Assembly: GCA_035512595.1 (NCBI GenBank)
Contig: DATKDU010000207.1
Location: 4,889 to 68,888, forward strand
Reading direction: 5' to 3'
Source of the DNA: Pirellulaceae bacterium
GTDB lineage: Bacteria; Planctomycetota; Planctomycetia; Pirellulales; Pirellulaceae
Length of the DNA: 64,000 bases
Shown here: positions 36,962-45,818 of the stretch, one piece after another
Numbering within the stretch: the stretch's first letter is position 1
How the letters are laid out: the number at the start of each line of letters is the position of its first letter
Notes under the pieces: generated by a model
Database searches by the model: none
Told to the model about the DNA's origin: nothing
The model's input: the letters and a program-made list of their open reading frames with translations, nothing else
Position numbers and translations under genes: made by a program

Positions 36962-37747
36962 CTACGGCATTGGCGCGATTACAACCTTTACGCAGAAACC
37001 ATCGGTTGTCCTCGAAAGGTCCGCCTCCAGGCCCGCTGGATTCGCAATGCGGTTTTCGGGGTCGTACACGAAACAGATTAGGTACTTGCAGCCAGGGTGT
37101 CTTTGATACTTGGCGATATCCAAAATCAGTTCTTCCCCGATCTTCCTTGCGTCCAGTCCTTTTCGCGTCTTTTTCAATTCAACGACGATCTGTGAATCCT
37201 TGAGCAGAAAGTCCATCCGTGCGGAACCACCCGCATAGCTTGGCGTCCATTCCTCGGCACGAATGTCGTCGAAGAACAACCTCAAGAGCGAGTGCATTAG
37301 GTCCTGCACGTCGTATTCATCAGTAATGTCGAGCGTGGGACGATCGGCGTGTCGCGCACGAAGCTGTCGAACCACGGCATGAAAGCGATTGCAAATCTGC
37401 TCGACAATCGCCACGGATTCCTCAAGATCGGCCTCCGCGTGGCGAACCTCAGGCATTCCAAACTGTTCGATCTCCCAAATAAACGAGCGAAGAACTTTTT
37501 TAGACTTGTCAACTCCCGCCTTGAAAGCTTGGATCTCTGGATTAGGATCACCGAGTCGGCAGATGCCGTAAAACTGAAAATCGACCGTCATTAAGTCCTG
37601 GGAATGGTGGGAGTCTTCCCCGAAGATCTGATCGAGGACTGTGCGGCACTTTCGTCGCCAGGCATCGACATTCGTCGGCTTCCGCTTTACGGCATCGGCC
37701 TCTTCGATCAAGCCTTTGATCAGGGTAGTTGCGGCGGCTGCATCCAC
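36962..37747 (-). CDS. PD-(D/E)XK nuclease-fold protein
   Basis: 261 aa. C-terminal half YDVQDLMHSLLRLFFDDIRAEEWTPSYAGGSARMDFLLKDSQIVVELKKTRKG fits a D...(D/E)xK core (D in MDF, ELK). Helical N-terminal half. AT-richer than its surroundings by eye. Confidence 0.7.
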   Translation of the reverse strand: MDAAAATTLIKGLIEEADAVKRKPTNVDAWRRKCRTVLDQIFGEDSHHSQDLMTVDFQFYGICRLGDPNPEIQAFKAGVDKSKKVLRSFIWEIEQFGMPEVRHAEADLEESVAIVEQICNRFHAVVRQLRARHADRPTLDITDEYDVQDLMHSLLRLFFDDIRAEEWTPSYAGGSARMDFLLKDSQIVVELKKTRKGLDARKIGEELILDIAKYQRHPGCKYLICFVYDPENRIANPAGLEADLSRTTDGFCVKVVIAPMP

Positions 37748-37787: not shown

Positions 37788-39278
37788 TCATTTACCTAGC
37801 TTCCCCGCAATCGCCTGAAACTGCTCTAGCGCCGTCTCCAGGTCGTCGGCAATCTCTGCCGCCAGAACGTCGGGCTCGGGCAGATCCTCGGAGTCCTCCA
37901 GGCTCTTGTCCCTGAGCCAGAAGATGTCCAGGTTCACCTTGTCCCGCTTGATCAGCTCTTCGTAGTCGAACTGCCGCCAGCGCCCCTCCGGGTTCTTGTC
38001 CGCGTCCCACTTGGCTTTCCGCTGGTGGCGCTTGCCGGGCCGGTAGCACTCAACGAACTCGTCCAGGTCGGCTCTGCTCATCGGGTTCGTCTTCTGGGTG
38101 AAGTGCATGTTGGTCCGCAGGTCGTAGACCCACAGCTTGCTCGTCCACGGCTTCTCCTGCGCCGGCTTGGCGTCGAAGAACAGGACGTTGGCCTTCACCC
38201 CCTGGGCGTAGAAGATGCCGGTCGGCAGCCGCAACAGCGTATGCACGTCGCACTGCGTCAGAAGGTTGCGGCGGACCGTCTCGCCGGCCCCTCCCTCGAA
38301 CAGCACGTTGTCCGGCACGACGATCGCGCAGCGGCCGTTGATCTTCAGCAGCGTCTTGACGTGCTGCACGAAGTTGAGCTGCTTGTTCTTGGTCGCGGTC
38401 CAGAAATCCTGCCGCTCGTAGGCGTGCTCCTCTTTTTCCAGGTCCCCCTCCTCGTTGACGATGGCGATGCTGCTCTTCTTGCCGAACGGCGGATTGGTGA
38501 CCACGACGCTGAACCGCTCCCCCGGATCGCCGGCCAGGCTGTCCACCCCCGACTTGATCGGGCACGGGTCGGCGTCGATGCCATGCAGGTACAGGTTCAT
38601 GATGCAGAGGCGGGCCGTGTTGGGGACCAGCTCCCATCCCTTCACGAACTTCGTCCGCAGGTGCTTCTTCTGGTCCTTGTCCAGTTCCTTGCCGAAGTGG
38701 GACACGACGTAGCTGTATGCCGCCAGTAGAAAGCCGCCGGTCCCCGCCGCCGGATCGCAGACCGTGTCCCCCGGCCCCGGCTGCACGCAATCGACGATCG
38801 CCTTGATCAGCTCCCGCGGCGTGAAATACTGCCCGGCCCCTTTAGGGGACTCCTCGGCACTCTTGGCCAGCAGCCCCTCGTAGATGTCCCCCTTCACGTC
38901 GGCATCCATGCTCGACCACTTGACCGGCTCGATCAGATCCACGATCAACCGCCGCAGCGTCGCCGGGTTCTGGATGTCCATCCGCGCCTTCTTGAAGATT
39001 TCGCCGAGCATCCCCGGCTGCTTCCCCAGTTCCTCCAGGCAGTGGCGGTAGTGGACTTCCAGCTCGTCCCCCTCGAGCTTGAGGAGCGCCTCCCACGAGT
39101 ATTTTTTGGGGACGATGGGGGGCCGGTTGTACGGGGCCTTGGTCAGCTCGTCGGCCATCTTCAGGAAGAGCAGGAAGGTGATCTGCTCGGTGTAGCCCAT
39201 GTACGACAGCCCGTCGTCGCGCAGGACGTGCGCGAAGTTCCAGGCTTTGGAGACGATTTGCTGGGAGAGGTTGCTCAT
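37788..39278 (-). CDS. hsdM: type I restriction-modification N6-adenine DNA methyltransferase subunit
   Basis: 496 aa. HsdM N-terminal domain, DPAAGTGGFL (motif I) and VVTNPPFG (motif IV). Confidence 0.95.
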   Translation of the reverse strand: MSNLSQQIVSKAWNFAHVLRDDGLSYMGYTEQITFLLFLKMADELTKAPYNRPPIVPKKYSWEALLKLEGDELEVHYRHCLEELGKQPGMLGEIFKKARMDIQNPATLRRLIVDLIEPVKWSSMDADVKGDIYEGLLAKSAEESPKGAGQYFTPRELIKAIVDCVQPGPGDTVCDPAAGTGGFLLAAYSYVVSHFGKELDKDQKKHLRTKFVKGWELVPNTARLCIMNLYLHGIDADPCPIKSGVDSLAGDPGERFSVVVTNPPFGKKSSIAIVNEEGDLEKEEHAYERQDFWTATKNKQLNFVQHVKTLLKINGRCAIVVPDNVLFEGGAGETVRRNLLTQCDVHTLLRLPTGIFYAQGVKANVLFFDAKPAQEKPWTSKLWVYDLRTNMHFTQKTNPMSRADLDEFVECYRPGKRHQRKAKWDADKNPEGRWRQFDYEELIKRDKVNLDIFWLRDKSLEDSEDLPEPDVLAAEIADDLETALEQFQAIAGKLGK

Positions 39279-39305
39279 TTTGTCTTTCGATGCATGGAGT
39301 GCGGC

Positions 39306-40817
39306 TTAGGCCCCCCCGACAAGTCCGAGCCCCGGCGCGAACATTGGATGCACGGCGAACCAGCGAGTGGCGGTTAACTCAACAGGATTGCTTGGATCGT
39401 AGGGAACCGCTTCGTCCGTTCTGCTCAACTTCACCCATAGAATGCCGCATTCAAGCAAGAGGCGGGCGAAAGCGCAGGGATCCTCGGAATAACCTCTTGC
39501 CCACGCATACCGATCTGCGCCGGGCTCATTCAAATCGACCTCCAGGGCTATGATTTCAAGGATGTTTTTCAAAGTGCCTAGTGGGAACTCCTTTTGACCT
39601 CCATTCATCTTTTTCACAATCCGCTCTAGGCCGGGATACTTGTACTCGAATTCGCCCGTAATCTCCTTGAGACGCTCGATCGAAAAGTCGCGGATGGCAG
39701 TTTCCATATCATGCTGTGTTATCTGCTTGTGTCCGTTGGTGTCTGCCGTGACCGCCGCGACTGTAGCCAATCGAATGGCTTCCCGCGGACGCCCATTCGA
39801 GTGCTTCCAAATTGCCTTGAAGGCGTCTTCTGGGAAAAGACCTCCCCATATTTCCTTGCGTTGCACCTGAAGTTTGAACAGGATTCTTTCCTCGACGATG
39901 GTACGAACCGAATCGAAGTCCCACCGCACTGGAATTACGACGTCGTGGAGTTTGTCTCGGTCAACGAGCGGCAAGGAGTTGTAGATATTCTCACGTAAGG
40001 CAACGATCGCCTTTAGGCGTGGTGGTCTGCTGAAGTGGCTCAAGCTGGTAAATAGCGATGCCAAGAAGGCGTTCTGCGTGGGAGTGTCGTTCCAGTAAAG
40101 ATCGAGATCGTCGATCAAGAGGTAATAGGAGTGCTTCACGTTATCGCGAAGTTTTCGCGCCACCGAATTCACCAGCGAAAGCAGATGGAGCGGCTCACCT
40201 GATTTCGCGTTCTCTTTATCCAGCACGGCCTTTCCCGTGATTTTTGCTCCGGCGTACTCGCCTGAAAGTTCGACTTCCTTTACTAGCTGAAGAATGCGGA
40301 CTGTCAGCGATGTTTCTTCGCCCTGGCTCATTGAGATGAGCTTTCTGGCTTCCTTTTCGAATTGGCCCCGAAAGATGTTAGTGAACCATCCGCTTAGTTC
40401 TGATGCGTTCGGAAACTCTCTTCTCAGGACCTCCATTGCGAGGACATAGTCCCAAAGGGCCTTGAAGAGCCACTGGTTCTTAGCCGACTCTGCGATGATG
40501 GGTGACGTTGCTTCCACGTTCGCGAGCGCCGAGAATGCGAGGTCGTCGGGACGGATGCTGATCACCCTGCATTCGCTTCCCGCCTTTGTAAGCTGCACCA
40601 TCTTCAGGATTGCCGATTTGCCCATGCCCTTTGGGCCGACAAAGAACGTAGCCGGGTCCTCGATGTCGATCGCGCGTCGCAAGTAGCGCTGTTCCGAAAC
40701 GTAATACTGGGCGAGATGTTCATCGTTCTCAGCAACAAGCCGCCCAAAATCGAGCGTGTCGTCTTCGGCGTTGAGCTTTAGGAGATTTCGTTCGCGGTCT
40801 TTGTTCTTCTTAGTCAT
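39306..40817 (-). CDS. P-loop NTPase of unassigned family embedded in the R-M operon
   Basis: 503 aa. Walker A GPKGMGKS (res 61-68) and Walker B YYLLIDDLD (res 231-239), about 165 residues apart. Helical C-terminal region. Visibly AT-richer. Confidence 0.85.
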   Translation of the reverse strand: MTKKNKDRERNLLKLNAEDDTLDFGRLVAENDEHLAQYYVSEQRYLRRAIDIEDPATFFVGPKGMGKSAILKMVQLTKAGSECRVISIRPDDLAFSALANVEATSPIIAESAKNQWLFKALWDYVLAMEVLRREFPNASELSGWFTNIFRGQFEKEARKLISMSQGEETSLTVRILQLVKEVELSGEYAGAKITGKAVLDKENAKSGEPLHLLSLVNSVARKLRDNVKHSYYLLIDDLDLYWNDTPTQNAFLASLFTSLSHFSRPPRLKAIVALRENIYNSLPLVDRDKLHDVVIPVRWDFDSVRTIVEERILFKLQVQRKEIWGGLFPEDAFKAIWKHSNGRPREAIRLATVAAVTADTNGHKQITQHDMETAIRDFSIERLKEITGEFEYKYPGLERIVKKMNGGQKEFPLGTLKNILEIIALEVDLNEPGADRYAWARGYSEDPCAFARLLLECGILWVKLSRTDEAVPYDPSNPVELTATRWFAVHPMFAPGLGLVGGA

Positions 40818-40875
40818 CGTGACTGCTCGTCGTAGTTAAGAAACTCGTCCGCGAAGCGACAGGAACTCCCAAGGA

Positions 40876-42444
40876 TTACCCAGCCGTTCGCGCAGCGGGA
40901 TTGGTTCGATTACGACCGGCCTTCGACCGGCCAGCAGCGCTCGCCCCATTCCTCTCGTCTCCCAAACCTAACCGTATTCGCTCCAGCAGCACGCTGGCCG
41001 GTTCGTCGTGGGGGTCTTGGGGGACGAGTTTCCCCTCGAAGGCCCGCTTGAGGATGCTCTGGCGGAGACGGGCGGCGCGGTGCAGTCCGTGGTCGATGGC
41101 AGTATCGGCCGCCTCGATCTGGGAGAGCCGCTCATCGAGTTGGGCGACGATTTCTCGCTGTTCGGAGGGGGGCGGAACTGAAACCGGGAACCGACGCAGA
41201 ATGCCGAGGTTGATCGAGGCCAGATTCGTTGTCTGCTTGCCAGCTTTAGTGAACCATTCCTGTCCAAACGTATTGCCGTGGTGCGAAACGAACCGGGATT
41301 GCATTTGCTTTGAGACCAGCCGGGCGCGGAAAATGTGGTTTTGGTGAATACACTCCAAGATTTCGCCTTCCCAAACCCACCCGCGACCGAGCTTATCCCG
41401 GTCGCCGCCTTCAGTGAAAAGGACGTCGCCAACTTCAAGTCGCAAGTCAACAATGTCCTCCTCGGGGGCAAAGATGTTTTTCATCTCGGAGAGGTCGAGA
41501 AACCCTCGCTGCACATTGGCGACTCGCAAATATGGAACTTCCCGCATCCCAGGTTGGTTGGACCGCTTTTGATCTTTTGTGATGCCGCCGACTAGATTGG
41601 CCAGCGCTTCAAGGGTCGCCCAGCACCAGCCCTTGGGCAGCTCGGGCAGGTTGGTCGTATCCGGCGACGCGGGCTCGACGTACTTGGCCCGCCAGTTCGT
41701 GGGGGGCGGTTTGCCGGCGGCGGCGAACTTGGCGAGTTGATCGGCTTCCCACTTGCGGCGGCGTTCGGCCAGGATCCGCTCCAGCAGCTTCGAGGCGGGC
41801 TCCACGTCCTTGTGCTTGGCCCGCCAGGCCGCGGTCAGCTTCCCCTTGACGGCCGCATTCAGGACGGCCGCCCGGTAACGCTTCAAGTTCGCCTTGGCCC
41901 GCTCCAGTGCCGCCACGCCCGCATCCAGGTCGGAGAACAGTTCCTCGATCTTCTCGACGATCCGGCGCTGCTCGCTGAGCGGAGGTACGGGGAACTCCAC
42001 TCGTGACAGTGCCTTTCCGGTCAAGTGCTTGATGGTCGTCCCCGTGTAATGCGGCGCGAAACGGTTGGTGATCGTCCCGTAGTAGAGGTAGTACATCGCA
42101 AACGAGGGGTCATATTCCTCGGGGCGAAAACGAATCCGATGGAGCGCCTTTTGGATTTTGGCGGATGCCGCTTGACCCTTCCAAACGGCTGCCCGACCGG
42201 GTTCGCCCCCTTCGCAAATCACAAGGTCGCCCGGCTGAAGGCCGAACCGCGATTCCTCGTCGGCCTCGAATCGCATTTCTTTCATGTCGCTAAGATCGAA
42301 TGTAAACCACCGCACGTTGACGTTACGCAGGTAGGGTTGCAGTGAGCCGCGATTCTTCTGCTTGTCGAGCATCTTCCCGAGACACATTTCGGCAGCAACC
42401 AAGGTCAGGGGCAACGCTGGCCACGGAAATCCATTTGCACTCAT
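40876..42444 (-). CDS. hsdS: type I R-M specificity subunit
   Basis: 522 aa. Two target-recognition halves separated by conserved helices (PPLSEQRRIVEKIEELFSDLDAGVAALERAKANLKRYRAAVL; PPPSEQREIVAQLDERLSQIEAA). ATGA overlap with hsdR. Confidence 0.9.
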   Translation of the reverse strand: MSANGFPWPALPLTLVAAEMCLGKMLDKQKNRGSLQPYLRNVNVRWFTFDLSDMKEMRFEADEESRFGLQPGDLVICEGGEPGRAAVWKGQAASAKIQKALHRIRFRPEEYDPSFAMYYLYYGTITNRFAPHYTGTTIKHLTGKALSRVEFPVPPLSEQRRIVEKIEELFSDLDAGVAALERAKANLKRYRAAVLNAAVKGKLTAAWRAKHKDVEPASKLLERILAERRRKWEADQLAKFAAAGKPPPTNWRAKYVEPASPDTTNLPELPKGWCWATLEALANLVGGITKDQKRSNQPGMREVPYLRVANVQRGFLDLSEMKNIFAPEEDIVDLRLEVGDVLFTEGGDRDKLGRGWVWEGEILECIHQNHIFRARLVSKQMQSRFVSHHGNTFGQEWFTKAGKQTTNLASINLGILRRFPVSVPPPSEQREIVAQLDERLSQIEAADTAIDHGLHRAARLRQSILKRAFEGKLVPQDPHDEPASVLLERIRLGLGDERNGASAAGRSKAGRNRTNPAARTAG

Positions 42445-45194
42445 GCCGCCAGCCTCCCATTCAGCTCCGCCAGGAGTGCCGGCAGCGCTTCGCCGAACAG
42501 TTCAAACGCCTTCCCCAGCCCGCCGATCTGGTTGAACGGCACTTCGTCGAGATCTTCCTTCTCGATCGTCAGGCTCGTGGCGACGTGGTCCTTGATCGCA
42601 TCCAGCCAGCGCCGCTGGTCGGGGGTGAACTTGCGGCCCGCGGCCGTCTGCTCGGCCAGCCACGCCTCATACCGCTCGTGGACCGTCTGCCCCATCGGCA
42701 CCAGCGGCGTCGCCGGGTCGAGTGCGTGCCGCACCAGGGCGATCAGGTCCACGATCTTATTGCCGCCGTCCGCCTTCACCTTGGCCGGCGCCACCGCCTT
42801 GTACGCCTGCCACAGCCGCAGCGGATCGAACCGATGCGGCGGCTGGGCCAACTCCTTGGCCAGTTCTTTCACCTGCGCGTACCGCAGCCCGGCCCGATAC
42901 GGCCTGCTGTAGAGGAGCTGGAGCGCCTCGATCTCATCCTTGTGCTCCTCGATGAACTGCCGAAAGCTGGTCACCAGGGCCTGCGCCTTCTCCTTGGAAG
43001 CCGCATCGAACCCCGCCTTGAGCAGCTTGTCCCGCGTCTGCTCGTCGATCACCTGCTCCAGCGACTGTTTCGCCTTCAGCACCTTGTCCCGCAGGACCGG
43101 ATTGTGGAACGGCTTCAGCGCCTGCCGCATCCGCTCGTGCTCGATCGTATCGAGCTGCTGCTCGCTCGGTTCCGTGCCGGCGGGCAGGGTGAATTTCGTC
43201 TTCGCCTGGGCGGCGACCGTGTCCGGGTCGATGCTCGCCAGCAGATCCCGGCTGAGCGTGGCCAGGTCCTTGCCGCCAGCCGCAGCCGTAAGTTCGGCCT
43301 CCGCGTCGGGCTCGATCTCCCGCTCCAGCCGGGCCAGCCGTGACGCCAGGGTAGAAACAATGTCGGCACTGGCGGCTCCCGCCCCGACCAGATTGAGAAT
43401 CTTGTCCAGCGGCACGCTGGGCTGCCGGTCGAGCGGTTTGGTGGCCGACTTCTCGCTTTCGCAGACGCCGATAGCATCCACGATCACGAAATGATCCTTG
43501 TGCCGGGCGTCGGGGGTCACGCTTTGCAGCGCGTCGCCATCGATCACCCGGCAGCCGCGCCCCTTCATCTGCTCGAAGTACGACAGCGAGCGGATATTCC
43601 GCAGAAAGAGCAGGCACTCCAGCGGTTTGACGTCGGTCCCCGTGGCGATCATATCCACCGTCACGGCGATCCGCGGATTGAATGCCGTGCGGAACTGCGC
43701 CAGCAAGTCGTCCGGCTTGTGCGCTTTGGCCGTGATCTTCTGGCAGAAGTCGTTCCCCTTGCCGAACTCTTCCCGCAGGATGCGGACCACGTCCTCGGCA
43801 TGCAGGTCGGTCTTGGCGAAGACCAGCGTCTTGGGGACTTCGGTCCGCCTCGGAAAAATCTCAGGCAGCTTGTCCCGGAACGTGCGGACGACCAGTCGAA
43901 TCTGGTCCTCGGCGACCACGTCCCGGTCGAGCTGATTGGCCGTATAGGTCAGGTCGTCGTCCAGCTCCCGGTACTTTTTCTGCTTGGTGCGCCGGTCGCG
44001 GTGGGGGACGAAGATGCCCGGCTCCTTGGCCAGCTTCGCCCCGCTGGCGCTGATTTGCGTCTCGATCCGGTACACGTCGTAGCCGACATTGACGCCGTCG
44101 GCGACTGCTTTCTCGTGCGTGTATTCCTGCACCAGGTTCTGATTGAAAAAGCCGATCGTCTGCGCCGTCGGCGTGGCGGTCAGGCCGATCAGGAAGCCGT
44201 CAAAATACTCCAGCACCTGCCGCCACAGGTTGTAGATCGACCGATGGCATTCATCGACCACGATGAAGTCGAACGTCTCGATGGGGATGCGCGGGTTATA
44301 GGCGACCGGCAGCGGTTCCTTGACCAGCGGCGTCTCGGTCTCGAACAGTGAGCTTTCCTCGTTCTCCTCCAGGTACTCGTCTTCGCCTTGGAGCATCGAG
44401 TACAGCCGCTGGATCGTGGTGATGCAGACCTTCGACGCGGCATCGATCGTGTTCCGCTTCAGGTGCTGGACCGTGTACTCCTCGGTGAACTTGTAACCGC
44501 TGGGGCCAATAAACTGCTGAAACTCGTTCAGCGTCTGCTTTCCCAGGTTGTTGCGGTCCACCAGGAACAGAATCCGCTTCGCTTTTGCGTGCTTGATCAG
44601 CCGGTAGCAGAAGTTGACGGCGGTGAAGGTCTTGCCGCTGCCCGTGGCCATCTGGATCAGCGACCGCGGCCGATTGTCCGCCAGAGACCGCTCCAGGTTA
44701 ATGATCGCTTCCTGCTGCACGCGCCACAGTCGCCCCTCTTCAAGCGGCGGCATCCCCCTCAGCAGCGACCGAACCTGATCGTCGAGCTGCACGAGCCGAA
44801 TCAATTCCTCTGGCCGGTGGAACGTGAAGACCGGCCGGCTGCGGGCGTCCGGTTCCAGGATGCTCGTGAACTGCGTCTCCGTGCCGGTCGATTCGTAGGC
44901 GAATGGCAGCGGCAGGCGGTAATTGGGCAGGCCCCGCGGCAGTCCTTTGACGTACTTATCCGACTGCGGCTCAATCCCTTTGAGCGTGTGCCCTTCCGGC
45001 TTGGCCTCGACGACGCCGATCGCCCGCCCGTCCGCATAAAGCAGATAGTCCGCTTCGCCGCTGGTGAGGGGAAATTCCCGCACGGCGATGCCATTGCCGG
45101 CCGAAAGGTCGATCTGGCGATAGTCCTGCACCTGCCAGCCGCATTCGGTCAGCTGCCGGTCGATGTTTTGTCGGGCTCGTTCTTCGGGGGTCAT
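42441..45194 (-). CDS. hsdR: type I restriction enzyme R subunit (EcoEI-type C-terminal region)
   Basis: MATGSGKTFTAV (motif I), VVDECHRS (II), LTATP (III), QMKGRGCR (VI). Start set at MTPEERARQNIDRQLTECGW (ATG 45194) rather than track start 45503. Confidence 0.93.
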   Translation of the reverse strand: MTPEERARQNIDRQLTECGWQVQDYRQIDLSAGNGIAVREFPLTSGEADYLLYADGRAIGVVEAKPEGHTLKGIEPQSDKYVKGLPRGLPNYRLPLPFAYESTGTETQFTSILEPDARSRPVFTFHRPEELIRLVQLDDQVRSLLRGMPPLEEGRLWRVQQEAIINLERSLADNRPRSLIQMATGSGKTFTAVNFCYRLIKHAKAKRILFLVDRNNLGKQTLNEFQQFIGPSGYKFTEEYTVQHLKRNTIDAASKVCITTIQRLYSMLQGEDEYLEENEESSLFETETPLVKEPLPVAYNPRIPIETFDFIVVDECHRSIYNLWRQVLEYFDGFLIGLTATPTAQTIGFFNQNLVQEYTHEKAVADGVNVGYDVYRIETQISASGAKLAKEPGIFVPHRDRRTKQKKYRELDDDLTYTANQLDRDVVAEDQIRLVVRTFRDKLPEIFPRRTEVPKTLVFAKTDLHAEDVVRILREEFGKGNDFCQKITAKAHKPDDLLAQFRTAFNPRIAVTVDMIATGTDVKPLECLLFLRNIRSLSYFEQMKGRGCRVIDGDALQSVTPDARHKDHFVIVDAIGVCESEKSATKPLDRQPSVPLDKILNLVGAGAASADIVSTLASRLARLEREIEPDAEAELTAAAGGKDLATLSRDLLASIDPDTVAAQAKTKFTLPAGTEPSEQQLDTIEHERMRQALKPFHNPVLRDKVLKAKQSLEQVIDEQTRDKLLKAGFDAASKEKAQALVTSFRQFIEEHKDEIEALQLLYSRPYRAGLRYAQVKELAKELAQPPHRFDPLRLWQAYKAVAPAKVKADGGNKIVDLIALVRHALDPATPLVPMGQTVHERYEAWLAEQTAAGRKFTPDQRRWLDAIKDHVATSLTIEKEDLDEVPFNQIGGLGKAFELFGEALPALLAELNGRLAA

Positions 45195-45818
45195 GCGGTC
45201 GTCCGGCAACTGCCTGCCGACGAGGAGAGCCAGCGACCCCACGAAAACCGCCGCGCCCGCCCATTGCCAGCCAGAGACAGAAAGTGACAAGGCGACGCCC
45301 ATTGTGGAGTCACCCGCCGCGGGATGCAAGCACTTTTCTGCCAGGACCGGGGCCAATATCGCGGGGGGCGCAACAAAAACGGCCCTCCGGTGGGGCAGGA
45401 ACCGGAAGGCCGCGATGCGTAGCCGCAAGCGGCCAGCACTCGACACAATATTCGTCGCCCGAGTCAATTGAAGCGCGGGAATGCCGGCATTTGTTCGCGG
45501 CATTCGGCCGCAGTAAGATGGACCTCACCCACGCACGGGTGAGTGTGAATCCAAACTCGATTTGAGGACCAACCTAGCGCAATAACGAACCAGAGCACAA
45601 GCGTGTAGTGAAGTTTCTGCTTCCCAGTAAACAGCCAACCTGAGCCGCAAGGCTCTTGATCTACAGAAGCAGTGCTTGCGCCACGCTCCCGCAAGGGAGC
45701 GTCGGCCAGGTGCTGTTCTGTAGGCCCCTTGGCTGGGGTACTGGGAGCGGCCCTGCGTTCGGCGCTCCTTTTTTCGTCGGCTGATCGAATGGCGGTCAGC
45801 AGCGGGAGATTCCTGACG

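Follow-up and report, generated by a model that had tools for sequence, protein, structure and literature searches.

A 64,000-nucleotide stretch of a Pirellulaceae genome (positions 4,889 to 68,888 of contig DATKDU010000207.1, assembly GCA_035512595.1; hereafter the window) carries a type I restriction-modification (R-M) operon in which an intact 503-amino-acid (aa) open reading frame (ORF), here termed X, is located between hsdS and hsdM at 39306..40817 on the minus strand. The best overall explanation of our results, to which we give a probability of roughly 0.55, is that X is an autonomous accessory gene encoding a P-loop NTPase of the Sll1717 family, with likeness to both ORC/Cdc6 and STAND proteins. 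By analogy with its remote relative DS-41, X is rather likely to act as a single-gene anti-phage protein, because of the remote homology to DS-41, the TIR fusions found among its relatives, the repeated embedding of family members in defence loci, and the accessory-gene distribution of the family.

Family, motifs and predicted fold of the NTPase

Judged by its sequence, X is a full-length member of a named family rather than the unassigned protein that the original prediction, made from the letters of the window alone, had described. The profile NF047389 ("P-loop ATPase, Sll1717 family") matched X with 215.9 bits (E value of 1e-63; curated cutoff of 75 bits) from end to end, X residues 24-497 being aligned with model positions 1-454 of 454, and a search of the whole genome confirmed this match and revealed X as a single-copy gene. 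A profile search of 1.84 billion representatives recovered 3,590 relatives at E ≤ 1e-3, of which 2,038 reached E ≤ 1e-10, corresponding to a family of about 3,600 representatives at 50% clustering, mostly 470-580 aa in length. The distribution of the family is patchy: 17 of 401 Planctomycetota genomes have a member, and these 17 represent many genera. The architecture of X is no different from that of the family, being the same in the Planctomycetota homologs, in a protein (P0075) from an Asgard metagenome-assembled genome and in proteins of enterobacterial IncF plasmids, whereas the R-M-embedded position is specific to the X locus. No paper was found by a literature search on the name Sll1717.

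The Pfam scan of X returned two sub-threshold matches and no further domain, namely, AAA_16 (PF13191; 30.3 bits, under the 32.6-bit gathering threshold) and ORC-CDC6-like (PF24389; 22.7 bits over 45 residues, with a threshold of 27). The Orc1/Cdc6 model TIGR02928 reached 24.4 bits in the lid region only, with a cutoff of 181.3, and X is not a member of that family. Sequence searches of the PDB, with X alone or with its profile, yielded only trivial P-loop matches (E ~0.1 or weaker). A KAP-type NTPase, which would likewise have a long spacing between Walker A and Walker B, was considered and dropped, as no Pfam match to it was obtained at E ≤ 0.1.

The claim that a P-loop NTPase is encoded between hsdS and hsdM held: the ORF is real, and the Walker A and Walker B matches are not due to chance, because their key residues are invariant across 38 aligned homologs (37-67% identity). 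Both the Walker A pattern GxxGxGK[ST] and the Walker B pattern hhhhDD are conserved, as in P-loop NTPases of the AAA+/STAND class. The motifs and domains of X are located as follows.

40614..40637, minus strand: Walker A GPKGMGKS, residues 61-68; P62, K63, G64, K67 and S68 invariant in the 38 homologs
40134..40550, minus strand: predicted helical insert, residues ~90-228, between strand beta2 (84-88) and the Walker B strand (231-235)
40101..40127, minus strand: Walker B YYLLIDDLD, residues 231-239; Y231, D236, D237, L238 and D239 invariant in the 38 homologs
39780..39794, minus strand: G-R-P-R-E motif, residues 342-346, in the lid; P344, R345 and R349 invariant
39309..39932, minus strand: AAA+ lid and putative winged-helix-like module, residues 296-503

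The AlphaFold2 (AF2) model of X, built from the 38-sequence alignment (pLDDT of 85.6 and pTM of 0.82), starts with a conserved N-segment (residues 1-55), which is followed by a strand, the P-loop, a helix and a second strand (58-88). The spacing of about 165 residues between Walker A and Walker B had been suspected to reflect an inserted domain, and it does correspond to a real helical insert, because the model places helices between beta2 and the Walker B strand. This insert comprises ~135 residues and is all-helical (helices 90-226), with a loop at residues 189-207 predicted to be disordered; of all parts of the protein, the first 45 residues of the insert (PDDLAF...NQWLFKxLWDYVL...E) are conserved best, and P90, F118, D123 and E134 are invariant among the 38 homologs. 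Beyond Walker B, residues 268-275 form a strand ending at the nearly invariant R275. The C-terminal 200 residues had been described as helical and lacking any recognizable motif, of which the helical character stood for the lid (residues ~296-390), followed by a winged-helix-like tail (~395-503) with the order helix-strand-helix-helix-helix-strand-strand. The statement on motifs has to be qualified, as the lid contains the invariant G-R-P-R-E motif, which, by analogy with Orc1/Cdc6, may be sensor-2 or GxP-like and which aligns with SPRELIKL of DS-41 and RPRDII of a TIR-fused relative, P0167. In the C-terminal module, K463 is invariant and R466, H490 and P491 are nearly so in the same alignment. 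A separate model of residues 296-503 reached a pLDDT of 93.8 and gave weak Foldseek matches to the lid and winged-helix parts of RuvB and Orc1/Cdc6 (best E value of 7e-3; TM score of 0.46 to 2qby_A), and a winged-helix reading of the tail is plausible, not proven.

Foldseek comparison of the whole model had its best PDB matches in the archaeal Orc1/Cdc6-DNA complexes 2v1u and 2qby (E values of 1.5e-6 to 2.8e-6), with further matches to the archaeal ATPase SSO1545, BREX BrxC and RuvB. In the model, X has an AAA+ core of the ORC/Cdc6 type, elaborated by the helical insert and extended by a lid and a winged-helix-like tail. The archaeal Orc1/Cdc6 proteins have the domain order AAA+ core, lid and winged helix, which X may share, and they have, like X, a helical elaboration after beta2, the site that carries the initiator-specific motif in the ORC/Cdc6/DnaA clade, as described in earlier literature. 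However, they are only 12% identical to X (TM scores of 0.41-0.56), the insert of X is ~100 residues larger, and X has no replication-origin context. The Walker B of X, of the form hhhhDDxD, and its GxP-like motif in the lid presumably resemble those of STAND NTPases. Relatives of X give weak nSTAND3 matches and can carry C-terminal TIR effectors, as in STAND/Avs-type NTPases, and the AAA_16 match was just under its threshold, but X has neither a repeat-type sensor (TPR, WD40 or LRR) nor an effector and, at 503 aa, is much smaller than Avs; instead of the tripartite STAND layout with effector and repeat-type sensor, the model consists of core, insert, lid and winged-helix-like tail. The similarity to BREX BrxC/PglY is structural only, BrxC having ~1200 aa in contrast to the 503 aa of X, and no BREX genes are found in the operon.

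Remote relationship to the anti-phage protein DS-41

The hidden Markov model NF053860 (DS41_1 anti-phage) matched X residues 24-394 with 51.2 bits (E value of 1e-13). DS-41 ("AAA2", WP_033812887.1), which consists of one E. coli gene for a protein of 502 aa, was validated against BASEL phages in the DefensePredictor study (PMC13092281), where the plaque assays list reductions of about 3.6 log10 units for Bas63 and 2.3 for Bas19; the authors of that study regarded the protein as remotely homologous to Avs1B. X and DS-41 are alike in being single genes for proteins of ~500 aa with an N-segment, a Walker A motif, a long helical insert (in DS-41 about 200 residues from Walker A to Walker B, as estimated visually from the published sequence), a Walker B fitting hhhhD(D/K)LD and a (S/R)-P-R-E lid motif; the likeness as observed covers the regions ahead of the C-terminal part.

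Among ten longer relatives of X, three end in a TIR domain (P0167, P0169 and P0244) and one in OST-HTH/LOTUS (P0163). P0167 aligns with X residues 25-421, insert included (28% identity, E value of 2e-33), and seemingly keeps the winged-helix-like module ahead of its TIR domain. From these sequences, TIR appears to be an add-on to a complete X-like body, and the alternative that it replaces the C-terminal module of X was rejected because it is appended after such a body.

Several observations weigh against an anti-phage role. The score of X is far below the 370-bit equivalog cutoff of NF053860, making X a remote relative only and not an ortholog of DS-41, and the hhalign comparison of the two was modest (68% probability, E value of 5e-5), covering 124 columns from Walker B to the lid only. 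No defence or candidate model of PADLOC v2 matched X convincingly: the best HEC/PDC match, PDC-M62A (E value of 6e-4), spans 33 residues around Walker B and is not significant, the other matches at E ≤ 0.1 are weak P-loop matches, with GajA, AriA and PtuA, and the PrrC model is absent at this level. A tblastn search of 50,697 phage records revealed no relative of X. Moreover, X has no enzymatic effector, whether nuclease, TIR, protease or another effector domain, so that any output step would be purely conjectural. Regarding the genomic contexts described below, many homologs are solitary between genes for RNase R, MutS, tRNA synthetases, GcvT and ribosomal proteins, the top-ranked neighbor families within three genes on either side in 19 homolog loci are mostly housekeeping, and recognizable defence genes occur in about 1/4 to 1/3 of ~30 sampled contexts. 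In addition, a role in plasmid maintenance is also compatible with the data, because the IncF plasmid members of the family lie near the replication region.

The hsdS-hsdM junction and the contexts of the family

The five genes of the operon are all on the minus strand and tightly packed, in the order hsdR, hsdS, X, hsdM and a second additional gene, here termed Y.

42441..45503, minus strand: hsdR, with ResIII, EcoEI_R_C and REase_I (Pfam, PADLOC); listed ORF of 1,020 aa
40876..42444, minus strand: hsdS, with Methylase_S (Pfam) and PADLOC Specificity_I (E value of 3e-121); upstream flank of the slot
39306..40817, minus strand: X, P-loop NTPase, by sequence of the Sll1717 family (NF047389)
37788..39278, minus strand: hsdM, with N6_Mtase (Pfam) and PADLOC MTase_I (E value of 8e-186); downstream flank of the slot
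36962..37747, minus strand: Y, 261 aa, with a helical N-domain and a DpnII/MboI-type PD-(D/E)XK domain (PF18742, E value of 5e-58)

The gap between hsdS and X is 58 bp and that between X and hsdM is 27 bp, while hsdR and hsdS overlap by 4 bp. Across the operon, no promoter or terminator signals, X-specific ones included, were found above shuffle expectation, and X is probably cotranscribed with the hsd genes. Relatives align to the hsdR ORF only from query residues 88-106 onward (tblastn), leaving ~100 codons unaligned at the 5' end (45195-45503); the listed ORF is therefore probably too long in the 5' direction, and the true start of hsdR is probably a Met near 45194.

The junction between hsdS and hsdM (39279-40875) is a variable cargo slot, and X is the cargo of this operon. 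Relatives of hsdM were detected in 42 of the 401 Planctomycetota genomes, and the comparison was made for 15 related loci, of one Planctomycetota type I R-M subfamily, in which hsdR, hsdS and hsdM are all present. These loci keep the unusual gene order hsdR-hsdS-hsdM, but not the junction: it measures 0-120 bp in 7 of the 15 and is filled with 0.9-3.3 kb of unrelated genes in the other 8. Because related operons have the junction tight or filled with unrelated genes, the original view of X as a separate module was sustained. Even the two closest operons (hsdM 80% identical) hold cargo that differs from X and from each other. No conserved leader or boundary motif was seen at the slot in the 90 nucleotides upstream of hsdM in 16 operons. 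The cargo of the related loci is as follows.

L063: PIN protein and a protein of unknown type
L064: 724-aa protein with a TRD-like domain
L065: PADLOC HEC-01A/B, i.e., an AAA_21 ATPase and DUF4276 (E value of 1.6e-94)
L069, 6299-9624 (3.3 kb): 309-aa protein with no Pfam or PADLOC match
L071: Mrr_cat protein
L076, 8296-9997 (1.7 kb): 360-aa protein with no Pfam or PADLOC match
L077: FRG/PDC-S15 protein and an IS200-like gene
L078: PIN_4 protein

The proteins inserted in L069 and L076 are candidate embedded defence genes. The occurrence of a non-R-M gene within a type I operon is shared with PrrC, TgvAB and the HEC/PDC candidates; TgvAB is embedded in a type I system of Vibrio cholerae (PMC11411939), and BREX, DISARM and type I loci were covered by the "guilt-by-embedding" survey of Payne et al. 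(bioRxiv 10.1101/2024.01.29.577857), two of whose candidates, HEC-01 and PDC-S15, occupy the same slot in sister operons. In contrast, the sequence of X resembles neither PrrC nor TgvAB nor any PADLOC v2 HEC/PDC model, and X, unlike PrrC, belongs to a family that occurs mostly outside R-M loci. The embedding of X in the R-M operon is incidental, and arrangements of this type have already been described.

Independence from the hsd genes is also observed in the relatives of X. A profile search of representative genomes retrieved 19 loci with close X homologs, almost all from Planctomycetota, and within 10 kb of these no relatives of the hsdR, hsdS, hsdM or Y of the operon were found (tblastn, E value of 1e-5); no neighbor cluster, and hence no conserved partner gene, was common to three or more of the 19 loci. 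Thus, X is not tied to the hsd genes. The closest homologs, P0005 (63% identical) and P0006 (62% identical), are inside DISARM-like loci, flanked by an Eco57I/MmeI-type methylase of ~1,500 aa and by the trio of Helicase_C, DUF1998/MZB and PLD genes, of which one representative is laid out as follows.

L024, 180-13732: DISARM-like locus with methylase of ~1,500 aa, Helicase_C protein of 1,145 aa, MZB/DUF1998 protein of 608 aa and PLDc_2 protein of 264 aa

In the DISARM-like loci (L024 and the P0005 contig), the X homolog is between methylase and helicase, with an additional YhcG/DUF1016 gene there in L024; upstream on the P0005 contig are genes for a 1,265-aa reverse-transcriptase protein and for CTD10/MC6/DUF2326 proteins. 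Other homologs overlap an MmeI-type enzyme by 8 bp (L007), follow a HEPN-DUF499 protein (L012), adjoin a type III R-M system on a resolvase/relaxase element (L027), a DUF4145 protein with CBASS genes 5 kb away (L083), or an XRE regulator and a PIN toxin-antitoxin pair (L082), or have a separate TIR_2 gene 194 bp downstream (L030). A family member of 557 to 559 aa (WP_000026497.1; 213 bits to NF047389) is present on about 200 enterobacterial plasmids, most of them conjugative IncF plasmids, where it sits alone a few kilobases from repFIB and an integrase gene; two of these are given below. The plasmid proteins are annotated as "hypothetical" or "DNA repair protein," the latter label having no visible basis.

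L031, 6959-8632: plasmid family member, E. coli IncFIA/FIB plasmid NZ_CP081687.1
L032, 6962-8641: plasmid family member

Base composition confirmed that X is more AT-rich than its hsd flanks, with GC and third-codon-position GC (GC3) fractions of 0.532 and 0.635 versus 0.630 and 0.911 for hsdM and 0.638 and 0.844 for hsdR (genome GC, 0.630). Only 0.07% of the 1512-bp segments of the 6.9-Mb genome are as AT-rich as X (z = -4.0), and its GC3 falls in the lowest 7% of long ORFs. Because the FYMINK and GARP fractions of X equal those of hsdM, the difference is synonymous. The original prediction took AT richness as a sign of insertion, but by itself it does not show a recent one, as each of the 16 full-length homologs that were tested exceeds its flanks in AT content (GC lower by 0.10 on average), including a seemingly long-resident syntenic pair in two distant Planctomycetota (L013:10001-11506 and L015:10001-11506) with the order HD/OB protein, X homolog and RNase R. 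In this pair, the X homologs are 61% identical and the flanking proteins 65-85% identical (RNase R, 65%), with GC3 values of 0.56 and 0.47 for the X homologs versus 0.90-0.95 and 0.72-0.79 for their neighbors. Low synonymous GC is a persistent family-wide trait, kept over long times, and is insufficient as proof of recent insertion; the modular insertion of X rests on the comparative analysis of the slot, not on composition. The trait may have arisen because low expression is favored by selection or because alleles are repeatedly replaced at one site. Among the eight slot inserts, seven are likewise more AT-rich than their own locus.

Y is also AT-rich (GC, 0.531; GC3, 0.611), and it further matches the PADLOC Argonaute-associated helical-REase models. 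Its family is large (more than 5,000 matches), and close homologs of Y occur as single genes within defence or mobile contexts, for instance, near BrxL, Kiwa KwaAB and AIPR genes (L080) or near AlpA-like and PRiA4 genes (L081); near three close Y homologs examined, no relatives of X or of the hsd genes were present. A two-gene system of X and Y, considered on account of their common odd composition, was rejected because Y is not found near the X homologs of the 19 loci nor X near the three Y homologs. X and Y are two independent pieces of cargo, one on each side of hsdM.

Alternative explanations and possible mode of action

The idea of a defence protein or sensor embedded in an R-M locus was borne out in part, a defence role being plausible and a functional tie to R-M as an anti-anti-restriction sensor finding no support. 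Such a tie would make X a guard of the R-M system, either held inactive by the type I complex or sensing anti-restriction proteins such as DNA mimics, and firing once a phage disables restriction, as PrrC does for EcoprrI. The 58-bp and 27-bp gaps within the operon, the absence of promoter or terminator signals above chance, the recurrence of the family in methylation-based systems (type I for X, MmeI-type for L007 and DISARM-like for P0005 and P0006) and a predicted DNA-binding-type fold that could in principle read DNA mimics are all consistent with a guard. However, no close homolog locus contains hsd genes, most homologs are solitary, the slot accepts unrelated cargo, X is unlike PrrC or any PADLOC model of R-M-linked sensors, and DS-41 was cloned as a single-gene system; we regard a guard as unlikely. 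It is more improbable still that X is a helper similar to BrxC, i.e., an ORC-like ATPase assisting methylation-based restriction, for example, through loading or regulation on DNA. The Foldseek matches to BrxC (9zll_B, E value of 2e-4, and also 9zdx), the weak ORC-CDC6-like match and the embedding of X and its relatives in type I, type IIG and DISARM-like loci agree with a helper, but the PF24389 score remained under its cutoff, related operons have an empty junction or different cargo, most homologs have no nearby methylase, and the TIR fusions point instead to an immune switch.

A role in the maintenance or replication of mobile elements, with X as an ORC/Cdc6-like DNA-binding ATPase serving an integrative island or plasmids, would accord with the fold and with the ~200 IncF plasmid members located a few kilobases from repFIB and an integrase gene. 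This role appears quite unlikely, as X is placed in an R-M operon and not in a replication module, many homologs are single among housekeeping genes with no mobile-element genes nearby, the Orc1/Cdc6 score is far from its cutoff (24 versus 181), and both the TIR fusions and the relationship to DS-41 are better suited to immunity. The least probable explanation is that X is a passenger, selfish or in decay, that at present serves no function in this genome. Atypical codon usage and the turnover of slot cargo between related operons would be expected of a passenger, yet the 503-aa frame is intact, the catalytic motifs are invariant in homologs down to 37% identity, and the syntenic L013/L015 pair retains 61% identity where RNase R retains 65%, indicating purifying selection. 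No housekeeping or characterized R-M accessory protein was found among the homologs of X. Of the explanations considered, an autonomous accessory NTPase with a probable anti-phage function is the one we prefer.

For such an anti-phage NTPase, a mode of action can be proposed with low confidence. On binding ATP, X would switch to an oligomeric state in response to a cue from the phage (DNA or protein), which may be read by the insert and the winged-helix tail, and the assembly would then block phage DNA replication or trigger abortive infection; in relatives with a C-terminal TIR domain, the output would be NAD+ depletion. A further and clearly improbable proposal is that Sll1717 proteins constitute an effector-less immune switch with a new mode of action. 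In one version of this proposal, replication would be blocked directly by an ORC-like protein that assembles either on phage DNA as it enters the cell or on a replication protein of the phage; in another, family members would be preferentially recruited into methylation-based restriction loci because they sense anti-restriction factors such as DNA mimics. If the effector-less switch were true, the low GC3 of the family (0.47-0.56 versus 0.72-0.95 in syntenic neighbors) would result from selection to keep the expression of a toxic sensor tightly limited.

These findings give a family name and a predicted fold to a gene that had looked unassigned. The hsdS-hsdM slot of Planctomycetota type I operons is a compact site in which to seek further defence genes by embedding, considering that several slot inserts carry no known domain. 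The Sll1717 family is a reasonable single-gene defence candidate outside every defence catalogue searched, and a defence protein of ORC/STAND-like type that lacks an effector would be of mechanistic interest if its role were confirmed.

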